A stretch of 64,000 nt of DNA, from contig DASZAB010000108.1 in NCBI GenBank assembly GCA_035945675.1, forward strand, positions 48,564-112,563, in the 5' to 3' direction. This stretch comes from Verrucomicrobiia bacterium (GTDB lineage: Bacteria > Verrucomicrobiota > Verrucomicrobiia > Limisphaerales > UBA11358). A program made the translations under genes and the position numbers. Within the stretch, counting starts at the first letter, position 1; each line of letters starts with the position of its first letter. The notes under the pieces are model-generated. The model worked only from the letters and a program-made list of their open reading frames with translations. It was not told the DNA's origin and did not search any database. Below, piece after piece: positions 18,101 to 38,355 of the stretch.

Positions 18101-21100
18101 CAACGGGAGCGTTGTTGGCTTGAGCCCTCAGCCGGGAACACCGAATCTTACCGGGAACAAATCTCCCGGAGTGGGAATGGGAACCATCCTCTACTGGGCC
18201 GGCATTTCAAACCGGCGCATCCTGCCGGAACCCACTTCTGGGAAACCTCGCTGGACAGGAATTCCCTGCCATATCTGGATGACCACCGCATCCAGGGCGT
18301 CGCCGTGCTGCCCGCCTCGGCCTATGTGGAGTTGGCCCTGGCCGCCGCGGTTGAAATCTTCCAAGCGCAACCCATTGCGCTGAAAGATATCGAATTTCGC
18401 AAGGCGCTTTTCCTGCCCTCGGCATGTGGAATACAGCGTCGGGATGCTCCGGGCCAGGCGGCCGGTGTTATTCCACAGGCCGAGGGCGGAAACCACACGA
18501 TTCAAGTAATTCTCTCCCAGGGCGCAGACGGAGCGGCATCCTTTCGCATCTACAGTTGCCCGGGTGGCGCGGTGCACTCCAAAAAATCGTGGATGCTGCA
18601 TGCAACCGGCAAGGTCTGTCTTCAACCGGACAACAGCACGATAACCCCGGCTGCCAGGCAGGAGACACTCACGGAGATGCAAACTCGATGCGCCGAAAAG
18701 ATCTCCGGCCAGGATTATTACCGGAAACTCAGCGAAAGCGGCGTCCATTACGGTCCTTTCTTTCAGAGCATCGCCCGGTTGTGGCGGAACAACGGCGATG
18801 TGTTGGGCGAAGTGCAGGTGCCCGATGGGCCGGAGGCAGAGTTTCACGGCTTTCAAATTCACCCGGCGATTCTCGATGCCGGGTTACAGGTTCTCGGGGC
18901 TGCAATTGCCGCGGAAGCGACTGAAAACGGCCGACCAGGAATTTACCTGCCAACCCGCATCAACCAGTTCCGGGTTCACGGACGTCCGGGCCGCCATTTA
19001 TGGAGTCATACCCGGGTGCAGCATCGGGATGCGGCTGCCATCACGGGAGAGGTCCAGCTCCTCGATGAAGCGGGACGCGTGGCGGTCGAGATTCAGGGAC
19101 TGCGCTTTGAATACCTGGGCGAAGATGCACCGCGCGCGGAGGTCGATAATCTCGACGACTGTCTTTATGAGTTCCAGTGGCAGCCCAAAGAGCGCGCGGC
19201 CGGAAAGTCTTCCGCGCCCGCCAGCCGGGCAAGCTGGCTGATCTTCACCGACAGCGGTGGTGTCGGTGATGCGCTGTCCGTGCGTTTGAAAGCCCGGGGC
19301 GAACGGAGTATTCTGGTTTCTCGCGGGGAAACGTGCGAGCAAACGGACGGCGAGCATTTTTGTATCCGTCCCGGACGACCGGAAGACATCCGCCGGCTCT
19401 TCGAGTCCGCGCTGGGATCGGACCAACCGGGCTGTCGTGGAATTGTCCATCTCTGGAGTCTGGATGTTACCTGTCCAGAGGAGACCACCGTGGCCTCGCT
19501 GAAGGCCGCGCAGATTCCGGGTTGCGGCAGTGTATTGCTGCTGGTGCAGGAACTGGCTGGAATGGAATCACCTGACCTCCCGCGACTATGGCTGATCACG
19601 CAGGGTGCTCAAGCGGTCGGAGAAAAGCCCGCGCCTTTGTCCGTCGCGCAGTCACCGCTTTGGGGATTGGGTCGCGTCATTGCCCAGGAACACCCGACAT
19701 TCTGGGGCGGGCTGATGGATCTGGAACCCGGAGCATCGCTGCGCGACGCTGCCGCTGATCAGTTGTGCGAGGAAATCTTTAGCTCGGATGGAGAGGACCA
19801 ACTTGCGTTTCGTCAAGGGCGGCGATACGTGGCCCGTTTGGCCCGCCAGCGCCCATCGGCCACGCCAGCCCGTCCGCTCCAGTGGCGGACGGACGGCAGC
19901 TATCTGATCAGCGGAGGACTCGGAGACCTCGGCCTCCTGGTCGCGCGTTGGATGGTCGAACAAGGGGCGCGACGGTTAGTCCTCCTGGGACGCACCAAAC
20001 TCCCCCTGCGCGCGAATTGGAGTTCAGTGGAAACCGGCAGTCGCCTGGCCCGCCAAATCACCGCCATTCGGGAACTGGAATCGTTGGGAGCATCGGTGCA
20101 TCTGGCATCAGTCGATGTGGCGGAAGAAGGAGAGTTGCGTGGCTTTCTGGACGAGTTTCGTGCGGAGGGTTGGCCGCCAATCCGGGGTGTCGTGCACGCG
20201 GCGGGCGTGCTGCAGGACGGACTGTTGGTGCAACTCGATGTTGCGGCAGTGAACACGGTTTTGCGGCCCAAGATGATGGGTGGCTGGCTGCTGCATCGCC
20301 TGCTGCAGGACGATCCCCTGGACTTTTTCGTCCTTTTCTCTTCCGCCGGTTCGGTGCTGGGCCAGCCCGGCCAGGGGAATTATGCCGCCGCCAACGCTTT
20401 TCTCGATACGCTGGCGCATCACCGGCAAGCCCGGGGTCAGCCGGCCCTGAGCATCAACTGGGGTGCCTGGGCCGGTGAGGGATTCGCGGATTCGGTTGGC
20501 GGCAAGCGTCTCGCCGCGCGCCTCGCGCTCCTGGGAATCAGCAGCCTCGCGCCCGGGCAAGCGCTGGAAATACTCGGACGACTGCTCGGGCAAAGTGCAA
20601 CCCAGGTTGTGGCGGTGCCCGTCAACTGGAGGCAATATCGGGAGTTTTATTCCGCCGGCGGTGTCCCGCCGCTGCTCTCGGAACTGGCGCGAGAGGAATC
20701 CGAAGTCCCCCGGCCCGCGGGTCGCACGAGCGAAAGGAGGGATGCCCTGCTGGCGGCCGAACCAGCGCAACGCCGGTCGTTGTTGCAGTCCTACCTGAGC
20801 GAGCAAGTGGCGCGGGTGCTCGGACTCAGCCCATCCAGGCTGGATGTCCAGCAACCCCTGAGCCATCTCGGACTGGACTCGTTGATGGCCGTCGAGTTGA
20901 AAAACCGGATCGCGGTTGACCTGAAGGTGAACGTGCCGGTGGTGAAATTCCTTCAGGGCGTTAGCGTTGACCAGGCGGTCACGCAGGTGCTGGAGCAACT
21001 GGCCGCCGGGGCCGCCAACCCGACGACGTCTCCGGCCCCGGTCGTCCCAAAGCGCAAGGAGCAAATGGACAAGGGAAATGCCGAACGCCTGTTGGCAAAC

Positions 21101-21181
21101 CTGGATGTGCTTTCGGATGAGAAAGTGGATGCATTGCTCGCCGATATGTTGGGTGAGGAAAAGGACGGTTCCATGCTATGA
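15185..21181 (+). CDS. type I polyketide synthase, ACP-KS-AT-DH-KR-ACP
   Basis: ACP YGLGS; KS DTACSS/EAHGTG/GHLE; AT GHSLG, IDIIQ, FASH; DH HRIQGVAVLP and HPAILD; KR GGLGDLG, LQD, YAAAN; ACP GLDSL. Confidence 0.96.
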   Translation: MAKNSNNAEVIQAWLVSKLSERLGIQSHEIDIREPFASYGLGSTEAVSLAGELAEWLGRKLSPALVYEYSTIESLARHLAESPDVPESATGAGQNREAKNEPIAIIGIGCRFPGANDPAAFWQLLRNGVDAIREVPADRFDAHAFYDADPATPGKMNTRWGGFLEQVDQFDPGFFGISPREALRMDPQQRLLLEVTWEALQDAGQVPERLVGTQTGVFIGIATNDYGRLQWNDLERIDAYSGTGNASSIAANRISYLFDFRGPSLAIDTACSSSLVALHLACCSLRHGESTLALAGGVNLILSPAIAINFTKAGAMAPDGRCKAFDARANGYVRSEGAGVVVLKPLSKALADGDPIYAVIRGSAVNQDGRSNGLMAPNPLAQEAVLREAYRQAAVSPGKVQYVEAHGTGTLLGDPIEAKALGTVLGVERPPGRPCALGSVKTNLGHLEAAAGIAGLIKVALALRHREIPPSLHFEKPNPLIPFDELPLRVQTTLSPWPAESGPALAGVSSFGFGGTNAHVVLEEAPPAKTGTAEAEPKTDTHLLPLSARSPEALRALARAWQNFLATPESAASLPDVCYTAGVRLSHHDHRLAVTGHSPAQLIESLEAFLRGEARPGLSSGRRLSARRRKLVFVFPGQGSQWFGMGRRLLEQEAVFREVIERCDRAMRPYGDWSLLAELTAADAARSRLNEIDIIQPALFAIEIALAALWRSWGIEPQAVVGHSLGEIAAAHVAGALSLDDAVRVICHRSRLFKRTIGQGGMAAVELSIEEARRVLVGFEDRVSIAVSNGPTSTVLSGDPAALAGILDQLQRRDIFCRMVKVDFASHSPQMEPLRADLLRALEGLRPRAESVPIYSTVTGQVAHGLEFDTLYWARNMREPVLFSTAVQRLVEAGHDIFLEISPHPILLSAMQQGFHHFGQEAAVLPSLRREEDKPTVLLGSLGGLYSLGYPIDWNRIYPTSGRCVRLPFYPWQRERCWLEPSAGNTESYREQISRSGNGNHPLLGRHFKPAHPAGTHFWETSLDRNSLPYLDDHRIQGVAVLPASAYVELALAAAVEIFQAQPIALKDIEFRKALFLPSACGIQRRDAPGQAAGVIPQAEGGNHTIQVILSQGADGAASFRIYSCPGGAVHSKKSWMLHATGKVCLQPDNSTITPAARQETLTEMQTRCAEKISGQDYYRKLSESGVHYGPFFQSIARLWRNNGDVLGEVQVPDGPEAEFHGFQIHPAILDAGLQVLGAAIAAEATENGRPGIYLPTRINQFRVHGRPGRHLWSHTRVQHRDAAAITGEVQLLDEAGRVAVEIQGLRFEYLGEDAPRAEVDNLDDCLYEFQWQPKERAAGKSSAPASRASWLIFTDSGGVGDALSVRLKARGERSILVSRGETCEQTDGEHFCIRPGRPEDIRRLFESALGSDQPGCRGIVHLWSLDVTCPEETTVASLKAAQIPGCGSVLLLVQELAGMESPDLPRLWLITQGAQAVGEKPAPLSVAQSPLWGLGRVIAQEHPTFWGGLMDLEPGASLRDAAADQLCEEIFSSDGEDQLAFRQGRRYVARLARQRPSATPARPLQWRTDGSYLISGGLGDLGLLVARWMVEQGARRLVLLGRTKLPLRANWSSVETGSRLARQITAIRELESLGASVHLASVDVAEEGELRGFLDEFRAEGWPPIRGVVHAAGVLQDGLLVQLDVAAVNTVLRPKMMGGWLLHRLLQDDPLDFFVLFSSAGSVLGQPGQGNYAAANAFLDTLAHHRQARGQPALSINWGAWAGEGFADSVGGKRLAARLALLGISSLAPGQALEILGRLLGQSATQVVAVPVNWRQYREFYSAGGVPPLLSELAREESEVPRPAGRTSERRDALLAAEPAQRRSLLQSYLSEQVARVLGLSPSRLDVQQPLSHLGLDSLMAVELKNRIAVDLKVNVPVVKFLQGVSVDQAVTQVLEQLAAGAANPTTSPAPVVPKRKEQMDKGNAERLLANLDVLSDEKVDALLADMLGEEKDGSML
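18415..18487. repeat. 19-bp inverted repeat bounding an in-frame insert in the DH domain
   Basis: GCCCTCGGCATGTGGAATA (18415-18433) and TATTCCACAGGCCGAGGGC (18469-18487), one mismatch. Confidence 0.8.
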
Positions 21182-25232: not shown

Positions 25233-25700
25233 ATGCCCAGAATCAGACTGAAACAACGAATCCGCGAACTTTGGCAGAAGCTGAAGCACCTCAATGCGAC
25301 ACCGGACCAGATCGCGGCCGGCTTCTCCATCGGCATCTTTGCCAGTCTCCTGCCGCTGAATCCATCCCCCATCATCGTGGCGACCGTGGTGGCGTGGCTG
25401 CTGAAGCGGAACGTTATGGCCGCGGTCGCCGGGGCGGTGACTTCGATTCTCTACCTTCCGCTATTGCCTTTGATCTGGCTGGCGGAATTTCGATTGGGGA
25501 AATTGATTCTCCCGGTGCAACATCCGTTGACGTTGGATCAGCCCCGACTGTGGGGCGTTTTGCAACAGGGTTGGGATGTTTACGCCGCCATGTTGGTTGG
25601 CTCGATCCTCATCGCCATCCCCGTCACATTGCTCACCTATCGGGTGGTCAAACGGCTCGCCGAGAGATGGAGTAAAAATGAGTCGCAACCTTCAGACTGA
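25233..25700 (+). CDS. DUF2062 family membrane protein
   Basis: TPDQIAAGFSIGIFASLLP pattern; hydrophobic. Confidence 0.8.
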   Translation: MPRIRLKQRIRELWQKLKHLNATPDQIAAGFSIGIFASLLPLNPSPIIVATVVAWLLKRNVMAAVAGAVTSILYLPLLPLIWLAEFRLGKLILPVQHPLTLDQPRLWGVLQQGWDVYAAMLVGSILIAIPVTLLTYRVVKRLAERWSKNESQPSD

Positions 25701-26474
25701 TGGCCGCCCCGGGTCCGGCCATTGCCAACAGGCAAGACGCCAGCCTTGCCCTTCCACGGCCAGAGCGGCGACATAGCCGGGGGCGGGGGCAAGTTCCTGA
25801 AGCGACCAGCGGGAGGCTTCGGATGAATCCGGTTGACCGCCGGGCACTGCGCCCGGTTCCCCGGGCGTCAGCGACACGTCCATCTGGTCCAGGGGCAGTG
25901 AAAGTCCTTCGCCCCGGGCTTTGAAGCAGGCCTCCTTGCGCGTCCAACAGCGAAAGAACACCTCACGCTGCTCCTCGGTGGAGAGCGACCGGAGCGCCGC
26001 CACCTCACGCCGTGAGAAAAACCGCTCGGCGATCTCAGCGACTGCCAGATTGGAACGGATGCGCTCGAGGTCAACGCCCACCTCCCGGCCACGAGTGACC
26101 GCGTAAAGGGCGATTCCATGGGAGTGGGACACGTTAAAGCGGATTGCATCCCCGCCGGATTCCCCGGCCAAGGCAGGCTTTCCATAAGAACTGTAGCAAA
26201 AGGACAGGCATTCCGGCGCTCGATTTAAATAGCCGCCGAGGATGGCACGAAGCACCCCACGGGCGACGATGAAGTGCCCGCGATCTCTCTCAAAATGAAA
26301 TCGCTCGGCCCGCGCCCGTTCATCCGCAGCCAGGTTGTGGCGGAAGCTCCGAATCTGTGACGGGGTCTGGTCCAGGGTCGCTCGCCAGACATGAACTTCA
26401 TCGGGACCCAGCACCGGGGTTTCCGGTGGAGCGAGCCACGGAGGAACCGGAGAAGTGCTGGGCGCTGCTTTCAT
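25692..26474 (-). CDS. Sfp-type 4'-phosphopantetheinyl transferase
   Basis: GKP, FNVSHS, VGVDLE, WTRKEA; start at MKAAPST. Confidence 0.93.
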   Translation of the reverse strand: MKAAPSTSPVPPWLAPPETPVLGPDEVHVWRATLDQTPSQIRSFRHNLAADERARAERFHFERDRGHFIVARGVLRAILGGYLNRAPECLSFCYSSYGKPALAGESGGDAIRFNVSHSHGIALYAVTRGREVGVDLERIRSNLAVAEIAERFFSRREVAALRSLSTEEQREVFFRCWTRKEACFKARGEGLSLPLDQMDVSLTPGEPGAVPGGQPDSSEASRWSLQELAPAPGYVAALAVEGQGWRLACWQWPDPGRPSV

Positions 26475-26484
26475 AGGGTGGTGC

Positions 26485-27243
26485 TCACCCGTCTCCGCGC
26501 AGTTCCCGGGAGAGCGCCTGAAGCAGGAGCGGCTGGGTTGTGTTCCAGTAGAAATGGTCACCGGGAAACATCCGCAGCGAGAAGGAACCGTTCGTTTGAT
26601 CACGCCAGGCTTCGAGATCACCTCGACGCACCCGCTGATCCTGCAAGCCGCCCAAGGTGGAAATGGGGCAGGTGAGCGGAGGTTCGATCGAATACACGTA
26701 CGTTTCGTAAACGGCGAAATCTGCCCGCAGGACGGGAAGCAGCATCTGCATGAGTTCGGCCTCTGCCAACACTTTTCCGGGAATGCCATTCAAGCGGCGC
26801 AATTCGGCCAGGAATTCCTCCTCAGGCAGGGCATGGATCGGCCGGTCTCGATGAGGAATCTGCGGCGCGCGGTCCGCCGAGACAAACAGGCGAACCGGCT
26901 GGACCCCGGACTGTCGCCGGAGCTGACGGGCGAGTTCAAAGCTAATCAATGCTCCCAGGCTGTGACCGAAGAAGGCGAACGGCTTGTCCAGGAGTGGGGC
27001 CAACGCCTGGGCGAGGGCCTGGACCAGCGGCGGGAGCTGGGTGAACGGGGTCTCAATCAGCCGGGTTCCCCGACCGGGTAATTCAACCGGGCAGATCTCA
27101 ACCTCCGCGGGCAAGCCGTCCGGCCAGGTGCGAAAAATCGAAGCACCCATTCCGGCGTACGGGAAACAGATCAGCCGAAGGCGGGCCTGCGGATTCGGTT
27201 TGCGGAAAGCAATCCAGGAATCAATGGCGGTTGCGGTGGTCAT
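26485..27243 (-). CDS. type II thioesterase
   Basis: CFPYAG, LPGRG, FGHSLG, GDHF; start at MTTATA. Confidence 0.93.
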   Translation of the reverse strand: MTTATAIDSWIAFRKPNPQARLRLICFPYAGMGASIFRTWPDGLPAEVEICPVELPGRGTRLIETPFTQLPPLVQALAQALAPLLDKPFAFFGHSLGALISFELARQLRRQSGVQPVRLFVSADRAPQIPHRDRPIHALPEEEFLAELRRLNGIPGKVLAEAELMQMLLPVLRADFAVYETYVYSIEPPLTCPISTLGGLQDQRVRRGDLEAWRDQTNGSFSLRMFPGDHFYWNTTQPLLLQALSRELRGDG

Positions 27244-27424: not shown

Positions 27425-28522
27425 ATGTCCCTCGAAACCACACTCGCCGACATTATCGCCCGCTTGCGTCAAGGCCGGTTTCCAAACGAACAGGCCATCT
27501 CCCAAGGCATTGTTTTGCGCGTGCTGCAGGAGTTGGGCTGGGACATCTACGACACTACCTCCGTCTGGCCCGAATTCCAGACAGGTGAAGGTCGCGCTGA
27601 CTTTGCCCTCTGCCATCCGCCTTCCAAGCCCGCCGATTTCATCGAAGTAAAGCCGCCCGGCAAGGCCGAGGACGGTGTCCGCCAAGCCCTCGAATACTCT
27701 TTCCATACTGGCGTGCCGTTCATCGTCCTGACCGACGGCAAGACTTGGAGCTTCTATCTGCCGGCGGAACAAGGCAGCTACGAAGACCGACGCGTGTACA
27801 AGCTCGATCTCTTTGAACGCCCGCCCACCGATGCCGCCGAGACGCTGCGCCGTTATTTGGCCCGTGAACGGGTCGAGTCCGGTGAAGCCCTTGAGGCCGC
27901 CCGCAAAGAATACCGCAGCCGCAACCGCCGCACCCAAGCCCGCGCTGCTATTCCCGAAGCGTGGCGCGAACTGGTCGAGAAGGGCAACGAAGATTTGGTT
28001 GACATGCTTGCCAGCGCCGTCGAATCCAAGGCTGGCGTCCGGCCCGACGACAACGATGTCGCCGAGTTCCTTGCTGGCCTCGGTCGACCGATCATCGTCG
28101 AAACATCGCATGACAAGACCGCTCCACAAACCAGCCCGGTAACCCATCGTCCCGCCGCGCTCCGCACCGGTGGCGAATCAACTCGTAGCGGCAAGCTCAT
28201 CCTTCGCGGCAAAGCCTATCCGTACCACAACGCCAAGGACGCCATGGTCATCGTCTTGCGCGAACTTGCCAAAGGCGAACCCACGTTCCTCGAACGCTGC
28301 TCCCAGCATCCTGACGCACAAGGCCGCAAGCGCCGCTATATCGCCCGCACACCCGAAGAACTTTATCCCGACCGCGAGGATCTCCGAGACATGCGTGAAT
28401 CTTTGACAGGCGGATGGCTTGTCGCGACCAACCTCAATAACGTACTTAAGAAAACCATCATCCGCCTCGCCGCCGAAGTTGCCGGGCTGACCTTCGGCAA
28501 GGATGTGATAGTAGAGTTCTAA
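27425..28522 (+). CDS. HsdR_N-type PD-(D/E)xK nuclease with a SeqA-like C-terminal domain
   Basis: NEQ..VLQELGWD..PEF..RADFAL..FIEVK..QALEY..LTDGKTW; no helicase motifs. C-terminus GRKRRYIA...WLVATNLNN. Confidence 0.75.
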   Translation: MSLETTLADIIARLRQGRFPNEQAISQGIVLRVLQELGWDIYDTTSVWPEFQTGEGRADFALCHPPSKPADFIEVKPPGKAEDGVRQALEYSFHTGVPFIVLTDGKTWSFYLPAEQGSYEDRRVYKLDLFERPPTDAAETLRRYLARERVESGEALEAARKEYRSRNRRTQARAAIPEAWRELVEKGNEDLVDMLASAVESKAGVRPDDNDVAEFLAGLGRPIIVETSHDKTAPQTSPVTHRPAALRTGGESTRSGKLILRGKAYPYHNAKDAMVIVLRELAKGEPTFLERCSQHPDAQGRKRRYIARTPEELYPDREDLRDMRESLTGGWLVATNLNNVLKKTIIRLAAEVAGLTFGKDVIVEF

Positions 28523-28539
28523 TAGGTGGGTTTCTCAAA

Positions 28540-28941
28540 ATGATTCCTGATGAATTTCAACAACTAATTGAAGAGCAGACTGACACGCAGTTACTTGGAT
28601 CGTGCCTGTATGAGGACATGGTGCCATACGTCTTTGAACCTAAGCCAGAGGCTTGGGACACTTTTCGTTATCTACTTGTTTCAAGTTTCAATGTTGGACG
28701 TGCCGATATACGAGTCGTTGGCAGTGGGCGGTTGGGTTTCAGCCTAAAGCCAGGGAAGAAGCTGATTAAACTTGCGGAGGATATCGATGAACAGCTTGAA
28801 GATCCTTCGGCAGACACAAGTGAGCCATCAAAGAAATATGCTAGGGCGATTGAGAAAGCCTCGAACGACAAGGCGCGGCGCGCAGATCGGCACGAAACCC
28901 TGTGTGGTATCATCAAGCCATTTCTAAAAGTGAAAAAATGA
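28540..28941 (+). pseudogene. AT-richer chimeric ORF: nucleotidyltransferase-like N-terminus joined to an unrelated helical C-terminus
   Basis: IRVVGSGRLGFSLKPGK is not followed by the expected DxD; the composition changes abruptly afterwards. Confidence 0.45.
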
Positions 28942-28979
28942 AGAAGGGGATCTCCAGCCAGCGGATCGAAAGGCCGTGG

Positions 28980-29957
28980 TCAGCTTTTACCAACGCGGTA
29001 ACGTCCGTGTGATTCTGTTAAGGCCATGGTGAGTTGACTTTCTTCGATGGCCTCTTGCGGATAATCGCTCAAATCGAATTCAAGCTCATCGCCCTCAAAG
29101 CCCGGATAGAGCGCGGCGAGCTTCGGGATGGTGGCCCCGGCGAGGCGAAAATAATCTTTGTCAACCTCGATCCCAACCGACCGGTAGCCGACCGCTTCGG
29201 CGGCGGCGATGGTTGAACCGGAGCCCATGAACGGGTCGAGCACCGTACCCTCGCCCAACGGCAGCAACGCTCGCACAATAATCCGCATGAAATGCTGCGG
29301 CTTCAGGCACGGGTGATCGGAAATGGCTTCTTCACGTTTCGGGGTGCGACCACTTGGCACGACTTCGGGGAACGGTTTATCAGTGGAAAGACGCCGCAAA
29401 CCGCCTGTCTTCCACTTTCGCAAGTTCTCGGCCACCGTCTTTTCGGCGAGAGGTTTCCGGAACAGCATCCACGGTTCGTAAGCGCCCTTTGGCGTGACGC
29501 AGACTTCCGGGAATTCCTTCTCGGCATTCTTGGGACGGTCGCCACCACGGAAGCCGAAGTATAACCGCATTACGGCCGGGCGAACCTCGTAACCGGCTTC
29601 AGCCATCGCTCCCTGCACGTGATGCTGAAGGATTGGGTGGCCGGCTACGCAGACATGCGCGCCGGGTACGAGAACATCGAGAAGAAGCTTTCCCCAATCA
29701 CGGAAAAACGCCCGAAGGTTCTGTTTCTCCCCGTCCGTCAGCACAGTGAACCGAGGCAGAGGATCACGTTTGTTTCCACCAATCATGGGAGGCAACCGCC
29801 ACACGCCGCCGCGTCCATTGCGCAACTTGGACAGTTCCTTCTCGGAGAATTCGATGAGCCCGTAAGGCGGGTCGGTGCAGACAGCGTGAATGCTCTGCGG
29901 CGCAGAGCCGCGCAGCCAATCGAAGCAGTCAGCAAGATGAATCTCGTACTTCCTCAT
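28980..29957 (-). CDS. site-specific DNA methyltransferase (N4-C/N6-A, beta class)
   Basis: Motif IV DPPY precedes HPCLKP and motif I LDPFMGSGST. Confidence 0.92.
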   Translation of the reverse strand: MRKYEIHLADCFDWLRGSAPQSIHAVCTDPPYGLIEFSEKELSKLRNGRGGVWRLPPMIGGNKRDPLPRFTVLTDGEKQNLRAFFRDWGKLLLDVLVPGAHVCVAGHPILQHHVQGAMAEAGYEVRPAVMRLYFGFRGGDRPKNAEKEFPEVCVTPKGAYEPWMLFRKPLAEKTVAENLRKWKTGGLRRLSTDKPFPEVVPSGRTPKREEAISDHPCLKPQHFMRIIVRALLPLGEGTVLDPFMGSGSTIAAAEAVGYRSVGIEVDKDYFRLAGATIPKLAALYPGFEGDELEFDLSDYPQEAIEESQLTMALTESHGRYRVGKS

Positions 29958-29984
29958 CGCGCGCAAGTTTCAACTATAGGCGAA

Positions 29985-30881
29985 ATGGATGCCAGGACCG
30001 TCATCGGCAATTTCGTCCGTCGTCCGCGCGAACAAAAGAATTTCACGCAGGACGGGCTGGCCGCGCGCACCGGCATCACCTACCAGTATTTATCCGGTCT
30101 GGAGAACGGACGCGAGAATTTTTCCATCGGAATCCTCGAATCACTTGGCAAGGCGCTGGATTGTCCACTCCCACAACTTGTGGCGGGTGCGTTCGCCGGG
30201 CCCTCCGTTTTGGCAAAGGTCGAAGCCAATCCCGACTATTTCCGCCCGCAAGCACCGTTGCCGCCCGGCCTCAAGATTGCACATCTGCAACGCGCGATGA
30301 ACGAAACCCAGCGGATTGTCTCGCTGATTAACGCAAATCTGTCGGCCAGCGGCGGGAAACCTTTGCCGAGATATATTCAGGGCAACAATTTTAGCGGGCT
30401 GGTCTCCAATATCCTCTGCGACGCGATTCACGAGAACTCGCCATACAAACACAACTCCCACCAAGCGTATCCTGACTTGGTCAATCCAAAGGTTTCCGCG
30501 AAAAGCAAGCCGGTCGGCTTGGAAGTCAAGTCAACCATCCAAATCGGCAAGGGCGGAGAAAGCCACAACGGTCATTCCGGCTGGCATCTCGTGGCGTGTT
30601 TCGCGATTGATCAGAAAACAGGCAACGTTCGCTTCGTTCACGTCATGCTGGCCGTGCTTAATGGTCACAACCAACCCGAGCCGGATTGGGTATACGTGGG
30701 CAGCAAGGTAAACGTTGATACCGGTAGTCGTCGAACCGAGACATACAACACGACGTTGATCGGCACGACAAAATTGCGGGACGGCTCAGTTTATCTCGAC
30801 CCAAGCATCATTAACTTCAAACGCTGGCGACAGGGCAGACGCAGGCCCGTGCCGCCGTTCTCGATCTTCGCCCAATCGTAA
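29985..30881 (+). CDS. XRE HTH (controller-like) domain fused to a putative type II restriction endonuclease
   Basis: TQDGLAARTGITYQYLSGLENG HTH, then YPDL...GLEVKST (PD-ExK); divergent from the MTase. Confidence 0.75.
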   Translation: MDARTVIGNFVRRPREQKNFTQDGLAARTGITYQYLSGLENGRENFSIGILESLGKALDCPLPQLVAGAFAGPSVLAKVEANPDYFRPQAPLPPGLKIAHLQRAMNETQRIVSLINANLSASGGKPLPRYIQGNNFSGLVSNILCDAIHENSPYKHNSHQAYPDLVNPKVSAKSKPVGLEVKSTIQIGKGGESHNGHSGWHLVACFAIDQKTGNVRFVHVMLAVLNGHNQPEPDWVYVGSKVNVDTGSRRTETYNTTLIGTTKLRDGSVYLDPSIINFKRWRQGRRRPVPPFSIFAQS

Positions 30882-30948: not shown

Positions 30949-33900
30949 CTACACGTTCCCGCTTTCTTCCGCCGCCGCGGATGGCGCCAGATTGAGGCAG
31001 GCCGTCAGTTTCTCCGCCAGGACTTCCACGTGCGGCGCGTACATCAGATTGGCGTGATTGCCGGGAACGACGTGGACCTCCACTCCGCCACCGGCCCAGT
31101 CGCTCCAGCCCTTCGTCGGGTCCGCGTCCGGAGACGAGCCCGCCGGCGTTTCACTCGCCTTGAAGAAGGTGATTCGGCCCGGGTAACGATGCAGTCCGTA
31201 GTTCTGCGTCGCGCGCAGGTCGCTCCGGAGGAGTTCGACAAAGCGGCGGGCCTGGGCAACATCCAGCTCCGCGGGTATCAAGCCGGCGCTCTTCGCCTGT
31301 TCCAGCATGAAGGCCAACTGTTCGGCTTTGGGCAGCTTCGCCACGGACTCCATCGGACCAAACGAAACACCGAAGTAACGTTCGACCAGCAGAATCGCTT
31401 CCGCATCTTCCTCCGGAAACGTCTCATCGGGAGTGGGGATCCGGCCATCGAACAGGGCGAGCAACGCCACCCGCTGACCTTGCGCGTGAAGTTGCTGCGC
31501 CATCTCGAAGGCGACCACGCCGCCCATGGACCATCCGCCCAGCAGGTACGGCCCCGTCGGCTGGACGGTCTGCAGGGCCTGAATGTACCAGGCCGCCATG
31601 TCTTCGATCCGCGTGTGAGGGTCTTGTCCGTCTTCCAGCCCCCGGGCTTGCAGCCCATAGCAGGGTTGATTGGGAGCCAGCAACTGCGCCAGATGAATGT
31701 AAGGGAAAACATGCCCGCCCGCCGGATGCACCAGGAAGAGCGGCGGTTTACTGCCACCGGGTTGAAGCGGCACCAATGAGGACTGCGGGCCGGACGTGGC
31801 CGGCTGACGGAGAAGGCCGGCGAGATGCTCGACCGTGGCTCCCTGAAAGATGGCCGTCAGCGGAAGTTTCCTGCCCAGCCGTTTCTCGATAAGGGCGAAC
31901 AGGCGCACCGCCAGCAGCGAGTGTCCTCCCAGCTCAAAAAAATTGTCTGTCAACCCGACCGGTCGAACGCCCAGGACCTCCTCCCAGATGCGCGCGAGTT
32001 GGAGTTCCAGGTCATCGCGAGGCGCAACGAACGCTTTCTCCAAGTCCGGCCGGGATCGATCCGGCGCCGGCAGTGCCCGGCGGTCCACCTTCCCGTTGGG
32101 CGTCATCGGCAACGCCTCGAGCAGCACGACCATCGCCGGCACCATGTACTCGGGCAGCTTGTCCTTGAGATAGCGACGCAACTCGTCGGCTGTGGAATCC
32201 GTAGAAGCGACCACATAGGCCACCAACCGCTTCTCGCCTGGCGCATCTTCCCGAGCCAGGACCACCGCCTCCCGCACGGCCGGGTGTTGGCCAAGCGCGG
32301 CCTCGATTTCCCCCAGTTCGATGCGAAACCCGCGGAGCTTCACCTGGTGGTCGACACGACCGAGGAACTCAATGTTCCCATCGGATCGATATCGGGCCAA
32401 ATCACCGGTCTGGTACATTCGCGCTCCGGGCGCGGCGCTGAAGGGGTCGGGAATAAATTTCTCAGCGGTCAACTCGGGCCGGTTCAAATATCCCCGGGCC
32501 AGGCCCGTTCCGCCGATATGCAGATGACCGGGAACGCCGATCGGAACGGCGTGGCCATGCGGGTCCAGAATGTAGGCCACCCGGTTGGCGAGGGGACGAC
32601 CAATGGGCACCCGCCGATCCGTCGTGGGCTCGCCCGGCCGGGGAGTAATTTCGAAGGCCGTGGCCGTGATCGTCGTCTCAGTCGGGCCGTAAGCATTGAG
32701 GAGCCGGATTGAACTCACCGGTGTTCGCTGCCAGAGCTGGAGAACCTCGGGCAACATCGTATCGCCGCCGACAATGAAGAGTCGGGGCTGAATGTTCGGG
32801 ACCAGCTCCGGGACGCCCGCCCATGCCCGGGCCAGTTCCTGCCAGTAGGCGGTGGGAAGATTGAGGACCGTGAGTCCGAATTCTGAAAGCTTTTGATGGA
32901 ATTCTGCCGGAGGCCAAAGGTTTGTCCCCATGATCACCAACCGGGCCCCGACGATCAGGGTCGGCAGGATTTCCTCCAGGGACACATCGAAACTCAACGA
33001 CGCAAACTGGAGGACGACATCGCGGGAGTCCAGTTCGTAGAGCCGTTGTGCATTCCGGCAGTGACCGGCAATCGAGCCATGTGAAACGAGCACCCCCTTG
33101 GGCTGCCCTGTTGATCCCGAAGTGTAGATGACATAAGCCAGGTTTTCGGGGAGGGTTGAACCGCCGGGGTTCTCTGCGCTTTCACGGGCGATGGTCTCCC
33201 AGCCTGAATCCAGACAGATGACTTTGGCATCCTGCTCCGGCAACCCCGCCACCAGCCGATCCTGGGTCAACAGCACCGGCGCCTGAGCATCTTTCAGAAT
33301 GAAAGCCAGGCGCTCCTTTGGATACGCCGGGTCCAGGGGCACGAACGCGCCGCCGGCCTTGAGAATGCCCAGCAATCCGATGACCATTTCCAGCGAGCGT
33401 TCCACGCAGATGGCCACCAGCACCTCGGGTCCGACTCCCAGCGCCCGCAAGTGATGCGCCAGTTGATTGGCCCGGCGGTTCAGCTGAGCGTAGGTCAACA
33501 CCGTTTCGCGCTTGTTCGCGTGGTCACGGAGCGGCTCCGCTTCGAGCACGACAGCGATGGCGTCCGGCGTTCGCTCCACCTGTGCTTCAAAGAGCTGATG
33601 AATATACAAATCCTGCGCGCTGTCGGTCCTGGCATTGTTCCACTCCACGAGCAGTTGCTGCCGCTCGGTTTCGGTCAAGAGCGGCAAGTCCGAGATACGC
33701 CGCTCCGGATCAGCGACGATGGCCTCCAACAGGGTCTGAAAATTCCCCAGCATCCGGGCAATGGTGGCCGCCTCAAACAGATCGCTGTTGTACACGAATG
33801 TTGCTGTCAGCCCTTGCTCGGTGTCCAGGATCTGCAGGGTCAAATCAAAGTGGGCCGTCTCACCGCCCCCCTCGACCGGGCTCAGGTTCAAGCCCGGCAG

Positions 33901-36900
33901 CTCGACCGTCCGCAGGGAAGCATGGTGCAGCACGAACATCACCTGGAAGAGCGGATTGCGGCTCAAATCCCGCTGCACGTGCAATTCCTCGACCAGCCGA
34001 TCAAAGGGCAGGTCCTGATGGCCGTACGCCCCCAAACAGACCTCCCGCACCCGCCGCAAGAGCTCCCGAAAACCGGGATTGCCGGAAAGGTCCGTCCGCA
34101 GAACCAGTGCGTTGACGAAGAATCCGATCAATCCTTCGGTCTCCAGCCGGTTGCGATTGGCGATCGGCGTGCCCACGATCAGGTCCTCCTGACTCGTGTA
34201 GCGATACAACAAAACCTTGAACGCCGCCAACAACGTCATGAACTGGGTCACCCCTTCGTGGCGACTCAGCGCTTTGAACCCTTCCGACAAATGTTTGGGC
34301 AACACCAACGATTGGTGCGCACCCCGGAAAGTCTGCACCGCCGGCCGGGTGTGGTCCGTGGGCAGATCGATCAGCGCGGGGGCGCCGGCGAGTTGCTTCT
34401 TCCAATACGCAATCTGGGTTTCCAGGACTTCACCGTGCAACCACTGCCGCTGCCAGTGGGCGAAATCCGCATATTGAATGGGCAGCGCCGGCAGCGGCGA
34501 GGACCCGCCGGCGCAGAAGGCGACATAGAGCCTCGCCAATTCTCGAACCAGGATTCCCGTTGACCAACCGTCGGAGACAATGTGGTGCATCGTCAGCAGC
34601 CCCACGTGCTCCTCATCGCCCAACCGTAACACGGTGCCCCGGACGAGCGGGCCCTGGGACAAATCGAAGGGGCGCCGGGCTTCGGCGGTGACCCATCGCC
34701 GGACCTCGGTCTCCCGCTCGCCCGGCGGCAGTTTCCGCAGGTCAACGACCGGCAGCTTGATTGTCAAGGTCGGGGCGATCACCTGCGTGGGCCGTCCTTC
34801 CGCCTTCCCAAAAGTAGTACGCAAGGATTCGTGGCGCTTGATGATTTCATTGAGACTCTGCTCCAGCGCCGCCAGGTTGAGTGGTCCCTTGAGGCGGACG
34901 GCGGCCGGGATATTGTAGGCCGGGAGGCCCGGTTCCAATTGATCGAAGAACCAGAGTCGCTGCTGGGCAAAGGAAAGAGCGAGGTCTCCGTTCCGTGGAA
35001 CCGGCAGGATGGGTGGTGCCAGCAGCGTCAGCCCGGCCAGGCGGGCGGCCTCAATGCTTTCCGCCAGACCCGCCACGGTCGGCACCTCGAACAGACGGCG
35101 CAGCGGAATTTCCAGTTGGAAGGTTTCGCGTATTCGGGACACGACCTGGGTGGCCAACAGCGAATGGCCGCCGAGTTCGAAGAAATTGTCGTGGATACCC
35201 ACCCGTTCAAGGTCGAGGAGCTCGGCCCAGATCTCCGCCATTAACTCTTCGGTCGGAGTGCGGGGCGCCACGAACACCTTGTCCAGTTCGGGTCGTGTTC
35301 GGTCGGGCGACGGCAGTGCCCGGCGGTCGATCTTTCCGTTGGGCATCAACGGCAACGCCTCCAGCAGCACGAAGACCGCCGGCACCATGTACTCGGGCAG
35401 TTTCGCCTTCAGAAAATGACGCAGATCGGTCGTCGTGAGGAGTGGCTCCCGCGCTGCGACGACATAGGCCACTAACCGCTTCTCGCCGGGCGTGTCTTCC
35501 CGGGCCAGGACGACGGTCTGCCGCACGGCCGGGTGTTGGCCCAGCGCGGCTTCGATTTCCCCCAGTTCAATGCGAAATCCGCGGAGCTTCACCTGATGAT
35601 CGGCCCGGCCGAGGAACTCGATGTTCCCATCGGGCCGATAACGGGCCAGGTCGCCGGTCTGGTACATTCGTGCTCCGGGAGTGGCGCTGAACGGGTCGGG
35701 AATAAATTTCCCGGCAGTCAACTCCGGCCGGTTCAAATAACCTCGGGCCACGCCGGCACCACCTATGTACAACTCACCCGGCACGCCGATCGGGACCGGA
35801 TGCAGAAACGAATTCAAGATGTAGATCTGCGTGTTGGCAATGGGACGACCAATCGTCACCTCGTCACCCGGGATGATTCTGGCCGCGGACGCGTTGGCAG
35901 TCGCCTCCGTCGGGCCGTAAATATTCCAGATCTGGAGATGCGGCAGCGCGGACCATGAGCGCGTGACCAGTTCTTGGGTCAGCGATTCGCCGCCGAAAAA
36001 CAGATACGCCAGACCTTCGCCCGGCGTCGGGGCTTGACCGGACTGAATGGCGGGGAGGATGGCTGTCCAGAACGAGGGCACGCAGTTCAGCCCGACCTTG
36101 GTCCGCGTGGCAAGTGCCGAAAGCAGCGTGGCGGGGTCCGCCACGACTTCCTCCGGGAGAATCCACACCGCGCCGCCGCGCAGGAGCGGGGGGAAGAGTT
36201 GCTTCAGGCACATGTCGAAGGTCAATTTGGTCGTCAGGGGCAGGCAGAGTTCCGGGTCACCCAGCGGACCCGCGCTGACCCAGCACAGATAGTTGACGAG
36301 GCCGCCGTGTTCGCACATGACTCCCTTGGGCTGTCCCGTCGAGCCCGAGGTGTAGATCACATAGGCCAGGCTCCGGGCGGTGACCCCACTGACCGGATTT
36401 TTTTCACTCTCCCGAGCGATGGCTTCCCACCCGGAGTCCAGGCACACGACGCGCCCTCCGTAATCGGGCAGGCTGTCCAGCCAATGCTTCCGCGTCAGCA
36501 CCACGGGCGCCTGGGCATCTTGCAGCATGAATGCCAGGCGCTCCTTGGGAGACGCCGGATCCAATGGCAGGTAAGCTCCGCCGGCTTTGAGAATGCCCAG
36601 AACCGCGACGACCATCTCCGGGCAGTGCACCAGGCCAATGGCCACGGGCACGTCCGGCCCAACGCCCAGCGTTTGCAGGTGGTGCGCCAGTTGATTGGCG
36701 CGAGCGTTGAGTTGAGCGTAGGTGAGTTGCTGTCCCTCAAACACAACGCCCACGTTGTCCGGCGTCCGCTCGACTTGTTCCTCAAATAAATGGTGGAGGC
36801 ACTTGGCTTTGGGGTAATCGGTTTGGGTATTGTTGAACTCGACTAACAATTGCCGGCGTTCCGCGCCGGTCAGAATATCCAACTCACCGATCGCGGCGGC

Positions 36901-38355
36901 TGGATCGCGGATGACGCTTTCCAGCAGCGCGTGGAAGTGTCCCGCCATCCGGGCGATGGTGGCGGCATCAAACAGGTCAGTGTTGAAACGGATGGAGGCG
37001 GAAAGCGATCCGGTCGCCTCGATGATCAACAGAACCAGATCCAGGGTCGCGGCCCGGCGTTCCAGCGGAATCGATTCCATCACCAGCCCGCCCAGATCCA
37101 TCCGGAGTCCGGTTTCGCCATGCGCGAATGCCGATCCGGCCTGTTCGATGAGCCGGTGCGGTTTGTCCAGGACGAACATGGTCTGGCAGAGCGGTGATCG
37201 GCTGAGATCCCGGGGCGGCCGGAGTCGTTGGACCAAACGAAGGGTCGGGTAATCCTGATTTTCGAGCGCCCCCAACACCGTCTGGCGCACCTGACCCAGA
37301 AATGCCCGAAACGTTGGATTTCCGGAAAGATTCGCCCGCAAGACGACTGGGTTGGCGAAGAAGCCCACCAGCCCCTCAAACTCGGCCCGGCTCCGTCCGA
37401 CCATGGGAGAAGCCACGAGGATGTCTTCCTGGCCGGTGTGGTGGTAAAGCATCAGGTCGAACGCCGCCAGCAGAACCATATACAGGGTCGCCCCCTCGGC
37501 CCTGGCGAGCGCCCTGAGCCGGCGTGCCAGTTCCTCGTTCAGAGTGAAATCATGTTGCCCGCCGCGAAACATCTGAATCGGCGGTCGCGGCCGGTCGGCC
37601 GGCAGATTGAGCACGGGCAACGGGCCGGCCAATTGTTTCTTCCAATAGTCCCAAAGCCGTTCGCCGGCCGGACTCGCCAGCATTTCGGTTTGCCAATGAA
37701 CGAAGTCCGTGTATTGCGAATCCAAGGGAGGGAGAGTCGCGGGACGACCGGCCTTTTCCGCCGGATACAACATGCCGAGTTCATTCAGGATTACCGCAAG
37801 GGACCAGAAATCGACCACGATATGATGAATGACCAGCAACAGGATGTGTTCCTGCGGCGACCGGGTGAACAGACTCACCCGCATGACCGGCCCGCGTTCC
37901 AGATCAAACCGGCGCTGAGTTTCCTCGACCAGCCGGGTCTGCAGCTCCTCCCCGCGCCAGGTTGACGCATCGATTTGCTCGAAGTGGACCGGCTGACGTT
38001 CGTGGATTTGTTGAACGGGTTTGCCGGCCTGCACCACAAATGTGGTCCGCAGGGAAGGATGGCGATCCACCAGCGCCTGAAATGCGCGCCGGAAAGCCGG
38101 GAGGTCCAGATCGGCGCGGATGCGCGCCGCAAAACTGACATTATAAATCGAGCTTTCCGGCGCGAACTGGCACAGAAACCAGATCCCCTGCTGATTATCG
38201 GAGAGAGCATGAAACGGTTGGGACCCGCCCGCCTTTCTCCGGAGGAGTTGGGCCAGAAGGGCGCGTTTTTCATCGGGTGAAAGATTGGCAATTGGCCGGG
38301 CGGTCGGCTGTGTCCGGATTTGCTGAGAGTTCGTCTGCGCCGGCATAACCTGCAT
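30949..38355 (-). CDS. two-module NRPS, C-A-T-C-A-T-TE
   Basis: HHIVVDFWS and HHIVSDGWS; two YTSGSTGQPKG/YGPTE/TGD A domains; two GGHSL T domains; TE GWSMG. Confidence 0.96.
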   Translation of the reverse strand: MQVMPAQTNSQQIRTQPTARPIANLSPDEKRALLAQLLRRKAGGSQPFHALSDNQQGIWFLCQFAPESSIYNVSFAARIRADLDLPAFRRAFQALVDRHPSLRTTFVVQAGKPVQQIHERQPVHFEQIDASTWRGEELQTRLVEETQRRFDLERGPVMRVSLFTRSPQEHILLLVIHHIVVDFWSLAVILNELGMLYPAEKAGRPATLPPLDSQYTDFVHWQTEMLASPAGERLWDYWKKQLAGPLPVLNLPADRPRPPIQMFRGGQHDFTLNEELARRLRALARAEGATLYMVLLAAFDLMLYHHTGQEDILVASPMVGRSRAEFEGLVGFFANPVVLRANLSGNPTFRAFLGQVRQTVLGALENQDYPTLRLVQRLRPPRDLSRSPLCQTMFVLDKPHRLIEQAGSAFAHGETGLRMDLGGLVMESIPLERRAATLDLVLLIIEATGSLSASIRFNTDLFDAATIARMAGHFHALLESVIRDPAAAIGELDILTGAERRQLLVEFNNTQTDYPKAKCLHHLFEEQVERTPDNVGVVFEGQQLTYAQLNARANQLAHHLQTLGVGPDVPVAIGLVHCPEMVVAVLGILKAGGAYLPLDPASPKERLAFMLQDAQAPVVLTRKHWLDSLPDYGGRVVCLDSGWEAIARESEKNPVSGVTARSLAYVIYTSGSTGQPKGVMCEHGGLVNYLCWVSAGPLGDPELCLPLTTKLTFDMCLKQLFPPLLRGGAVWILPEEVVADPATLLSALATRTKVGLNCVPSFWTAILPAIQSGQAPTPGEGLAYLFFGGESLTQELVTRSWSALPHLQIWNIYGPTEATANASAARIIPGDEVTIGRPIANTQIYILNSFLHPVPIGVPGELYIGGAGVARGYLNRPELTAGKFIPDPFSATPGARMYQTGDLARYRPDGNIEFLGRADHQVKLRGFRIELGEIEAALGQHPAVRQTVVLAREDTPGEKRLVAYVVAAREPLLTTTDLRHFLKAKLPEYMVPAVFVLLEALPLMPNGKIDRRALPSPDRTRPELDKVFVAPRTPTEELMAEIWAELLDLERVGIHDNFFELGGHSLLATQVVSRIRETFQLEIPLRRLFEVPTVAGLAESIEAARLAGLTLLAPPILPVPRNGDLALSFAQQRLWFFDQLEPGLPAYNIPAAVRLKGPLNLAALEQSLNEIIKRHESLRTTFGKAEGRPTQVIAPTLTIKLPVVDLRKLPPGERETEVRRWVTAEARRPFDLSQGPLVRGTVLRLGDEEHVGLLTMHHIVSDGWSTGILVRELARLYVAFCAGGSSPLPALPIQYADFAHWQRQWLHGEVLETQIAYWKKQLAGAPALIDLPTDHTRPAVQTFRGAHQSLVLPKHLSEGFKALSRHEGVTQFMTLLAAFKVLLYRYTSQEDLIVGTPIANRNRLETEGLIGFFVNALVLRTDLSGNPGFRELLRRVREVCLGAYGHQDLPFDRLVEELHVQRDLSRNPLFQVMFVLHHASLRTVELPGLNLSPVEGGGETAHFDLTLQILDTEQGLTATFVYNSDLFEAATIARMLGNFQTLLEAIVADPERRISDLPLLTETERQQLLVEWNNARTDSAQDLYIHQLFEAQVERTPDAIAVVLEAEPLRDHANKRETVLTYAQLNRRANQLAHHLRALGVGPEVLVAICVERSLEMVIGLLGILKAGGAFVPLDPAYPKERLAFILKDAQAPVLLTQDRLVAGLPEQDAKVICLDSGWETIARESAENPGGSTLPENLAYVIYTSGSTGQPKGVLVSHGSIAGHCRNAQRLYELDSRDVVLQFASLSFDVSLEEILPTLIVGARLVIMGTNLWPPAEFHQKLSEFGLTVLNLPTAYWQELARAWAGVPELVPNIQPRLFIVGGDTMLPEVLQLWQRTPVSSIRLLNAYGPTETTITATAFEITPRPGEPTTDRRVPIGRPLANRVAYILDPHGHAVPIGVPGHLHIGGTGLARGYLNRPELTAEKFIPDPFSAAPGARMYQTGDLARYRSDGNIEFLGRVDHQVKLRGFRIELGEIEAALGQHPAVREAVVLAREDAPGEKRLVAYVVASTDSTADELRRYLKDKLPEYMVPAMVVLLEALPMTPNGKVDRRALPAPDRSRPDLEKAFVAPRDDLELQLARIWEEVLGVRPVGLTDNFFELGGHSLLAVRLFALIEKRLGRKLPLTAIFQGATVEHLAGLLRQPATSGPQSSLVPLQPGGSKPPLFLVHPAGGHVFPYIHLAQLLAPNQPCYGLQARGLEDGQDPHTRIEDMAAWYIQALQTVQPTGPYLLGGWSMGGVVAFEMAQQLHAQGQRVALLALFDGRIPTPDETFPEEDAEAILLVERYFGVSFGPMESVAKLPKAEQLAFMLEQAKSAGLIPAELDVAQARRFVELLRSDLRATQNYGLHRYPGRITFFKASETPAGSSPDADPTKGWSDWAGGGVEVHVVPGNHANLMYAPHVEVLAEKLTACLNLAPSAAAEESGNV

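Follow-up and report, generated by a model that had tools for sequence, protein, structure and literature searches.

A PD-(D/E)XK nuclease fused to a SeqA-fold domain: a candidate modification-dependent restriction enzyme of Verrucomicrobiota and other phyla

The fusion gene, its cassette and its nuclease half

The window is the whole stretch of DNA that was analysed (64,000 nucleotides of a contig from a Verrucomicrobiia bacterium); its features of interest are listed in Table 1. A cassette of 3.5 kb (27425-30881) begins with the fusion gene, and it resembles its relatives from exactly the start codon of this gene onwards. Judging by motifs, the cassette is presumably inserted between thioesterase-like and NRPS-like genes of a PKS/NRPS cluster. 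The interrupted cluster (15185-38355) is taken, on the same basis, to comprise a PKS (15185-21181), ABC/LolA-like genes, a phosphopantetheinyl-transferase-like gene (25692-26789) and an NRPS (30949-38355).

Table 1. Features of the fusion gene and of its cassette in the window. Residues are numbered in the 365-aa protein.
Feature	Coordinates	Strand	Basis
Nuclease-SeqA-fold fusion gene, 365 aa	27425..28522	+	ORF translation, AlphaFold model, synonymous excess
HsdR_N-type PD-(D/E)XK nuclease domain, residues 1-152	27425..27880	+	Pfam HSDR_N/HSDR_N_2, conservation, Foldseek, dimer model
Helical module, residues ~154-220	27884..28084	+	Model helices 154-185, 189-203, 209-219; conservation
Pro/Thr-rich disordered linker, residues 222-253	28088..28183	+	pLDDT <50; variable
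SeqA-C-fold domain, predicted DNA reader, residues 255-365	28187..28519	+	Pfam, profiles, Foldseek, VIA-align
GRKR motif, residues 300-303, pairs with SeqA GRxR	28322..28333	+	Profile alignments
TNLNN loop, residues 335-339; N336/N338 = SeqA N150/N152	28427..28441	+	Profile alignment, conservation
Chimeric deletion remnant, 133 aa	28540..28941	+	Comparison with relatives' cassettes; junction near 28757-28761
Beta-class N4/N6 DNA methyltransferase	28980..29966	-	PADLOC MTase_II E 4e-89; PF01555
Control-protein HTH fused to putative PD-(D/E)XK restriction enzyme (REase)	29985..30881	+	HTH/control-protein matches; motif, context

The chimeric remnant consists of the first ~70 codons of an uncharacterised 205-aa gene (putatively nucleotidyltransferase-like, by a motif only) and of the last ~60 codons of a GmrSD_N (DUF262) gene. 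Both genes are intact in a fuller cassette (L005), which is ordered nuclease, 205-aa gene, GmrSD_N gene, methyltransferase, control-protein-REase gene; they were fused by independent deletions in the window and in L004. In L074, the 205-aa gene is lacking and the nuclease gene is truncated. The middle of the cassette varies (window, 28540-28941; L004, 3148-3480; L005, 1407-3156; L074, 5078-6169).

The label of restriction enzyme given to the control-protein fusion is putative, from its motif and its context; the gene is divergent from the methyltransferase gene, and one of its relatives, carried by a plasmid, adjoins a DNA methyltransferase gene. The original prediction, that the fusion protein complements this adjacent classical R-M pair, did not hold: the pair accompanies the nuclease in 3/80 loci only (L004, L005 and L074, all close relatives) and is therefore a co-passenger rather than a fixed partner, and the methyltransferase has its own divergent REase. 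HsdM and HsdS partners are absent beside the fusion gene, and neither a PF02384 nor an Eco57I-family methyltransferase was found in the source genome. In this genome (G000), GTMKAC, presumably an AccI-type site, is strongly avoided (observed/expected: GTCGAC, 0.18; GTAGAC/GTCTAC, 0.23; GTATAC, 0.36), which suggests that the genome was long exposed to an R-M system of this kind. Among the PADLOC 2.0 system HMMs, none matches the fusion gene beyond weak partial hits (E 0.006 or worse); those to Cas12b are short helical chance matches.

The nuclease motif is D59..E74-V-K76..Q87xxxY91, plus E22. Among 187 near-full-length close homologs, E22, D59, E74, K76 and Y91 are invariant (187/187) and Q87 is found in 186; the Pfam HSDR_N match (residues 54-111) reaches 24.6 bits, just under the cut-off of 25.1. 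Neither Pfam nor the model reveals any helicase or motor family in the protein. An N-terminal HsdR_N-type nuclease with a D..EVK..QxxxY motif and without a motor domain had been read from the DNA beforehand, and this reading is confirmed; the Pro/Thr linker placed after it is indeed disordered and variable, but the conserved helical module had been overlooked. The AlphaFold model of the full protein (mean pLDDT 88) comprises the core, the helical module, the disordered linker and a compact C-domain. The 187 homologs are on average 85% identical to the query over the nuclease and likewise over the C-domain, 83% over the helical module and 39% over the linker. In comparisons with four close relatives, codons with synonymous changes only exceed replacements ~3- to 9-fold in both domains, not in the linker: the nuclease and the SeqA-like domains are under purifying selection.

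A C-terminal domain related to SeqA

Direct matches to SeqA families are below threshold. The Pfam SeqA match (PF03925; residues 274-348; E 0.015 in the full protein, 1.3e-3 for the domain alone) scores 19.2 bits for a cut-off of 25.5, and the NCBIfam one (NF008389; E 0.011) 15.7 bits where 185 are required. SeqA was not retrieved by single-sequence searches of PDB sequences; profiles and folds were needed. Family profiles compared with all PDB sequences place SeqA chains in ranks 1-5 (best E, 2e-4 and 1.4e-4). The isolated C-domain is modelled with a pLDDT of 98, and the resemblance to SeqA-C that had been claimed was upheld when this model was submitted to Foldseek: ranks 1-5 are all SeqA (probability 1.00; TM 0.55-0.65), with modest E values (5e-3 to 8e-2). 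With the full-length model, the remaining matches are the nuclease domains of DrdV, HsdR and BpuSI. Among 48,161 chains compared with VIA-align, SeqA gives Z 10.9 and 9.7, the next rows 6.5 and 3.9; the best superposition aligns 102 of 111 residues with residues 71-181 of the SeqA chain (rmsd 2.5). Identity of the C-domain to SeqA is 16-19%.

The sole match above Z 5 other than SeqA is the SLED domain of human SCML2 (2mem; Z 6.5, rmsd 2.5, 83 residues aligned, 4% identity). This match may point to a distant relationship of SeqA-C with a Polycomb domain, or else to a widely shared arrangement.

The GRKR motif pairs with GRxR of SeqA in the profile alignments; its G300 and R303 are present in 187/187 close homologs. 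The correspondence of N336 and N338 with N150 and N152 of E. coli SeqA, placed by counting along the 3fmt sequence, reproduces the motif alignment proposed at first; these two residues of SeqA belong to the loop named as DNA-binding in PMC2691817. Each position of the loop is kept in 175-186 of the 187 members of the subfamily, the second Asn in 183. Among 158 more distant domains, 97 different loops are found, and the position of the second Asn is occupied by Ser in 70 and by Asn in 51. The retention of both Asn thus holds for the subfamily but not family-wide. The proposed extent of the domain, ~110 aa, was likewise correct; its start is residue 255 (28187) and not 28190, which is in residue 256. 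The stretch aligned with residues 129-137 of SeqA is not conserved.

The window protein has no match to PF17206 (SeqA_N) at E up to 1. One family profile alignment ran on into the N-terminus of SeqA, but this profile was partly built from SeqA_N-bearing proteins; homology of the helical module to SeqA_N is at best tentative, given this bias and the lack of a PF17206 match.

From these sequence and fold comparisons, the C-domain is a SeqA-C homolog, within a protein that is not SeqA itself. It shares with SeqA-C (PF03925; 3fmt, 1lrr, 1iu3, 3sk7) the fold, the GRxR motif and the T-N-x-N loop. The fusion protein differs from SeqA in its low identity (19%), in a nuclease located in place of SeqA_N, in its mobility and in its occurrence outside the Dam clade; its loop has a Leu at the middle position, and the residues aligned with 129-137 differ. 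DNA reading by the C-domain is predicted; the fold shared with SeqA does not by itself fix the ligand.

Relatives, spread and neighbourhoods

The homologue search with the window protein gave at least 1,523 clusters, several of which carry the source label 'predicted type IV restriction endonuclease'. A sister subfamily (44% identity) comprises at least 2,723 clusters, with the C-domain in 118/120 members among the matches listed; the C-domain alone matches 764 clusters at 50% identity. In species-representative genomes, 108 places with a close relative were confirmed, and 80 of them were used for locus comparisons. The 80 loci are mostly from Verrucomicrobiota, the others being from Acidobacteriota, Nitrospirota, Planctomycetota, several proteobacterial groups and Bacteroidetes; a cultured strain, Luteolibacter pohnpeiensis (L051), has a 68%-identical copy. 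Few full fusions are found in a draw of 400 class genomes centred on a Burkholderiales carrier, which gives a comparison with Dam little power there. Viral loci include one full-length relative (41% identity) among 80; the plasmid set and the INPHARED phage set include none, and E. coli genomes, searched at the DNA level only, gave no match to the gene. The distribution is patchy over several phyla.

A full-length copy is present in 2/18 genomes of the genus of the source genome, the insertion site differs in nearly every genome, and in one Dam-bearing carrier (G016) the gene has a low GC content. This is the pattern of mobile defence genes and argues against a housekeeping enzyme, MutH-like and nicking or coupled to replication, that would act on the host's own hemimethylated DNA. 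Such an enzyme would be in keeping with the whole SeqA-like proteins found among the relatives and with the binding of SeqA to hemimethylated DNA behind the fork (PMC2691817, PMC12707154); it is regarded as very improbable.

Domain architectures were scanned in 108 of 150 listed representatives. SeqA_N precedes the C-domain in four of them (P0146, P0194 and P0172, above the Pfam cut-off; P0169, below), which gives independent support to the homology with SeqA, and the C-domain of P0163 passes the Pfam SeqA cut-off outright. L235:286-1390 encodes an Mrr_cat domain fused to a C-terminal SeqA domain (28 bits, above the Pfam cut-off) and is split by a frameshift; in P0141, Mrr_N is joined to the C-domain. 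Two or more copies of the C-domain are found in 14/140 representatives. Related nuclease chassis on viral contigs carry a DUF4357 tail in 2/19 genes examined (L150, L156), and sister genes of the latter, with a nuclease part 50-54% identical, carry other tails; the tails of the viral-contig chassis match the C-domain HMM weakly (best E 0.002). Such modular swapping (Mrr_cat, Mrr_N, DUF4357 tails, tandem domains) is typical of type IV enzymes.

Other architectures were observed. P0146, P0194, P0169 and P0220 are stand-alone proteins of 170-225 aa with SeqA_N or a similar N-terminus followed by the C-domain. P0172 combines SeqA_N, a SeqA-like domain and an ADP-ribosylglycohydrolase; the SeqA-like domain is fused to CBS domains in P0145 and to a Swt1-like HEPN domain in P0268. 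In L211:327-1346, a close nuclease chassis is joined to a short, unrelated domain at its C-terminus, winged helix-like by eye, without Pfam match.

No conserved partner gene was found among the 80 loci. The immediate neighbours scanned (146 genes) include housekeeping genes, toxin-antitoxin genes, YhcG, DUF5131, a DEAD-box helicase and HsdS; GmrSD genes lie beside the nuclease gene at some loci. The nuclease gene is located within a type I R-M cluster in 7/80 loci, and hsdS is directly downstream of it in 6/80. The same truncated hsdM-like sequence lies upstream of the gene in L043, L064 and L070, and a DEAD-box helicase gene downstream in L043, L046 and L070; a decayed type I junction thus recurs.

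Methyltransferases were screened with 13 seeds and Pfam, which divergent enzymes may escape: a methyltransferase or a fragment was detected in 12/80 loci (6/37 loci of at least 12 kb) and none in 68/80 (31/37). The motif match in L031 was discarded, being a transporter. The methyltransferases that turned up near the gene belong to unrelated systems. An unregulated sequence-specific nuclease would need a methyltransferase, an argument likewise made in PMC11037411; as there is usually none here, the enzyme is probably modification-dependent.

The nuclease could instead be independent of modification, with the SeqA-fold domain as a generic tether to DNA or to a structure and the nuclease inactive until triggered, as an abortive-infection or toxin-like effector or as an accessory of type I R-M. 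The frequency of toxin-antitoxin neighbours, the loci in which the gene directly precedes hsdS, the many unrelated tails borne by related chassis and a helical module without assigned role are in line with this reading. The lack of a conserved partner in the 80 loci, the purifying selection on a specific SeqA loop and the Mrr fusions, which point to modification reading, speak against it, and it is considered improbable.

Candidate function and target mark

The best explanation, held with somewhat better than even confidence, is that the fusion protein is a stand-alone, type IV-like, dimeric modification-dependent restriction nuclease that reads N6-methyladenine (m6A). The single-chain nuclease targeted by adenine methylation that was predicted originally stands as the fusion of a nuclease with SeqA-C, usually without a cognate methyltransferase; its activity and its binding of m6A are predicted from homology and context. 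The SeqA ancestry of the reader makes N6-methyladenine in an A:T pair the most likely mark. As the gene moves alone, without a protective methyltransferase, self-cleavage would be avoided most simply if the mark were absent from the host.

A single PD-(D/E)XK centre cuts one strand, so that double-strand cleavage would need a dimer. In a model made of two copies of residues 1-222, the chains meet head-to-head; the interface involves residues 18-32 and 41-52 and lies close to E22 and E50. This model scores 0.45 for a best control of 0.00; the pass mark is reached by 20/30 solved homodimers and 1/23 single chains. Between runs, 96% or more of the contacts agree, and pLDDT is 83 or higher; of the three runs, one had a score of 0.01. 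The model predicts that the nuclease domains dimerise head-to-head, and likeness to solved nuclease dimers, e.g. DrdV, may contribute to its score. Such a dimer would bring two nuclease active sites together. Each reader, on its 30-residue flexible tether, would dock at an m6A motif not produced by the host; with two readers bound, the dimer would be positioned to cut some way from the mark. Defence against phages or plasmids would be its role. The surroundings of the gene are of defence type at some loci, i.e. the type I R-M loci mentioned above (7/80) and toxin-antitoxin, YhcG and GmrSD genes elsewhere.

Within this best explanation, a narrower version, nested in it, is that the enzyme reads Dam-type methylated GATC like SeqA and restricts DNA of dam+ donors or of Dam-encoding phages. 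Taken by itself it is rather doubtful; if an m6A-reading type IV-like enzyme is granted, GATC as the motif has somewhat less than an even chance. The retention of both Asn of the loop and of GRxR in the subfamily favours it. The source genome (95% complete) has neither a PF02086 Dam-family gene nor a true SeqA, and GATC is its fifth most depleted 4-mer (observed/expected 0.68), CTAG and GTAC being more depleted. An E. coli-type Dam ortholog was detected in just 2/72 carrier genomes screened; none was found in a set of 24 carriers, whose best identity to the Dam of G016 is 43%.

The lack of conservation of the stretch aligned with SeqA 129-137 counts against GATC reading, and PF02086 matches are not depleted: they are found in 27/48 carrier genomes (the intact Verrucomicrobiota carriers among the 80 loci) and in 126/301 genomes of a phylum draw, carrier genomes being larger and PF02086 including non-GATC specificities. 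At this family level, mutual exclusion with Dam is not seen. Two MAGs (G016, G032) have both an E. coli-type Dam ortholog, which matches the Dam structure at E 5e-73, and an intact nuclease gene that keeps all catalytic and loop residues, and three more carriers have TIGR00571 enzymes of undefined specificity. G016 alone of the two is convincingly binned: the flanks of its nuclease contig fit the tetranucleotide profile of the genome (distance 0.007, for 0.008-0.019 in its other contigs), whereas the nuclease contig of G032 (3.7 kb) is of ambiguous binning. Dam is present in 3/3 genomes of the genus of G016, and the GC content of its nuclease gene is 9 points below that of the host, so that this gene may be newly acquired, or silent. 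In the family of G016 (351 genomes), the counts are 11 and 11 with an overlap only in the pre-selected centre, and the test is powerless. In 37 carrier loci, the observed/expected ratio of GATC varies between 0.15 and 1.06, without common trend. Co-residence with Dam is a genuine, if modest, caution against a strict specificity for GATC.

The Dam orthologs L240:1762-2586 and L241:4113-4946 are orphan, and both lie at the same conserved chromosomal site. Orphan Dam occurs in this Opitutales lineage, outside the usual Dam clade, in 11/351 genomes of the family draw.

The enzyme might also be modification-dependent with a SeqA fold retuned to another mark, N4-methylcytosine or hypermodified A/T of phages. 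This would explain why the gene coexists with Dam and with type I adenine methyltransferases of the host; the loop is highly variable family-wide, and there is a precedent in the repurposed sensor of END nucleases (PMC12191111). The loop that reads A:T is, however, almost unchanged in the subfamily, and nothing positive points to any other mark; this reading is thought unlikely. Returning to an m6A-reading enzyme, retention of the preference of SeqA for hemimethylated DNA, which would result in replication-triggered restriction, is given a low probability. In a host without Dam, incoming fully methylated DNA stays hemimethylated after its first replication (PMC12707154); invaders would thus be cut only once replicating, or once a methyltransferase of the phage itself works.

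The preferred reading places the fusion protein beside several known systems. DpnI, FcyTI, HhiV4I and Ahi29725I (PMC11037411) are likewise a single-chain nuclease plus reader without cognate methyltransferase. The fusion protein differs from DpnI and the winged-helix fusions in its SeqA-fold reader and its HsdR_N-type nuclease, and m6A dependence, shown for them, is here predicted; 'SeqA' is absent from the main text of that article. The nuclease fold and QxxxY are shared with the N-terminus of HsdR and with type IIG/IIL nucleases (DrdV, BpuSI, V. vulnificus HsdR), but helicase motor, methyltransferase and HsdS-type recognition domain are lacking: the fusion protein is not HsdR. END nucleases are also encoded by a single gene without methyltransferase and have a C-terminal sensor derived from a housekeeping DNA protein; they differ by a PLD or NucS-like nuclease, an inactive EndoIII sensor and hypermodified phage DNA as target, and have been tested experimentally (PMC12191111). 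RAMA domains are described as predicted m6A-reading modules swapped among restriction nucleases, and a RAMA domain fused to a SeqA domain is mentioned (PMC4738411); an HsdR_N-SeqA nuclease is absent from the main text and one text supplement of that article.

No description of an HsdR_N-SeqA nuclease was found in the open literature; subscription journals and bioRxiv supplements, outside the scope of the search, may list a member. The fusion is apparently undescribed in the open literature searched and would add a reader variant to type IV restriction. To our knowledge, tested m6A-dependent restriction enzymes have winged-helix readers; if the prediction is true, the SeqA fold would be an added reader class for type IV restriction, and the family that carries it is large and uncharacterised (at least 1,523 and at least 2,723 clusters) and outside PADLOC 2.0. 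As SeqA prefers hemimethylated DNA, a nuclease specific for hemimethylation might well be sought in this family; such an enzyme would serve methylome and replication work. The SeqA domain and whole proteins made of SeqA_N and the C-domain reach far past textbook SeqA, and the reader family could conceivably be a defence pool from which gammaproteobacterial SeqA was domesticated.
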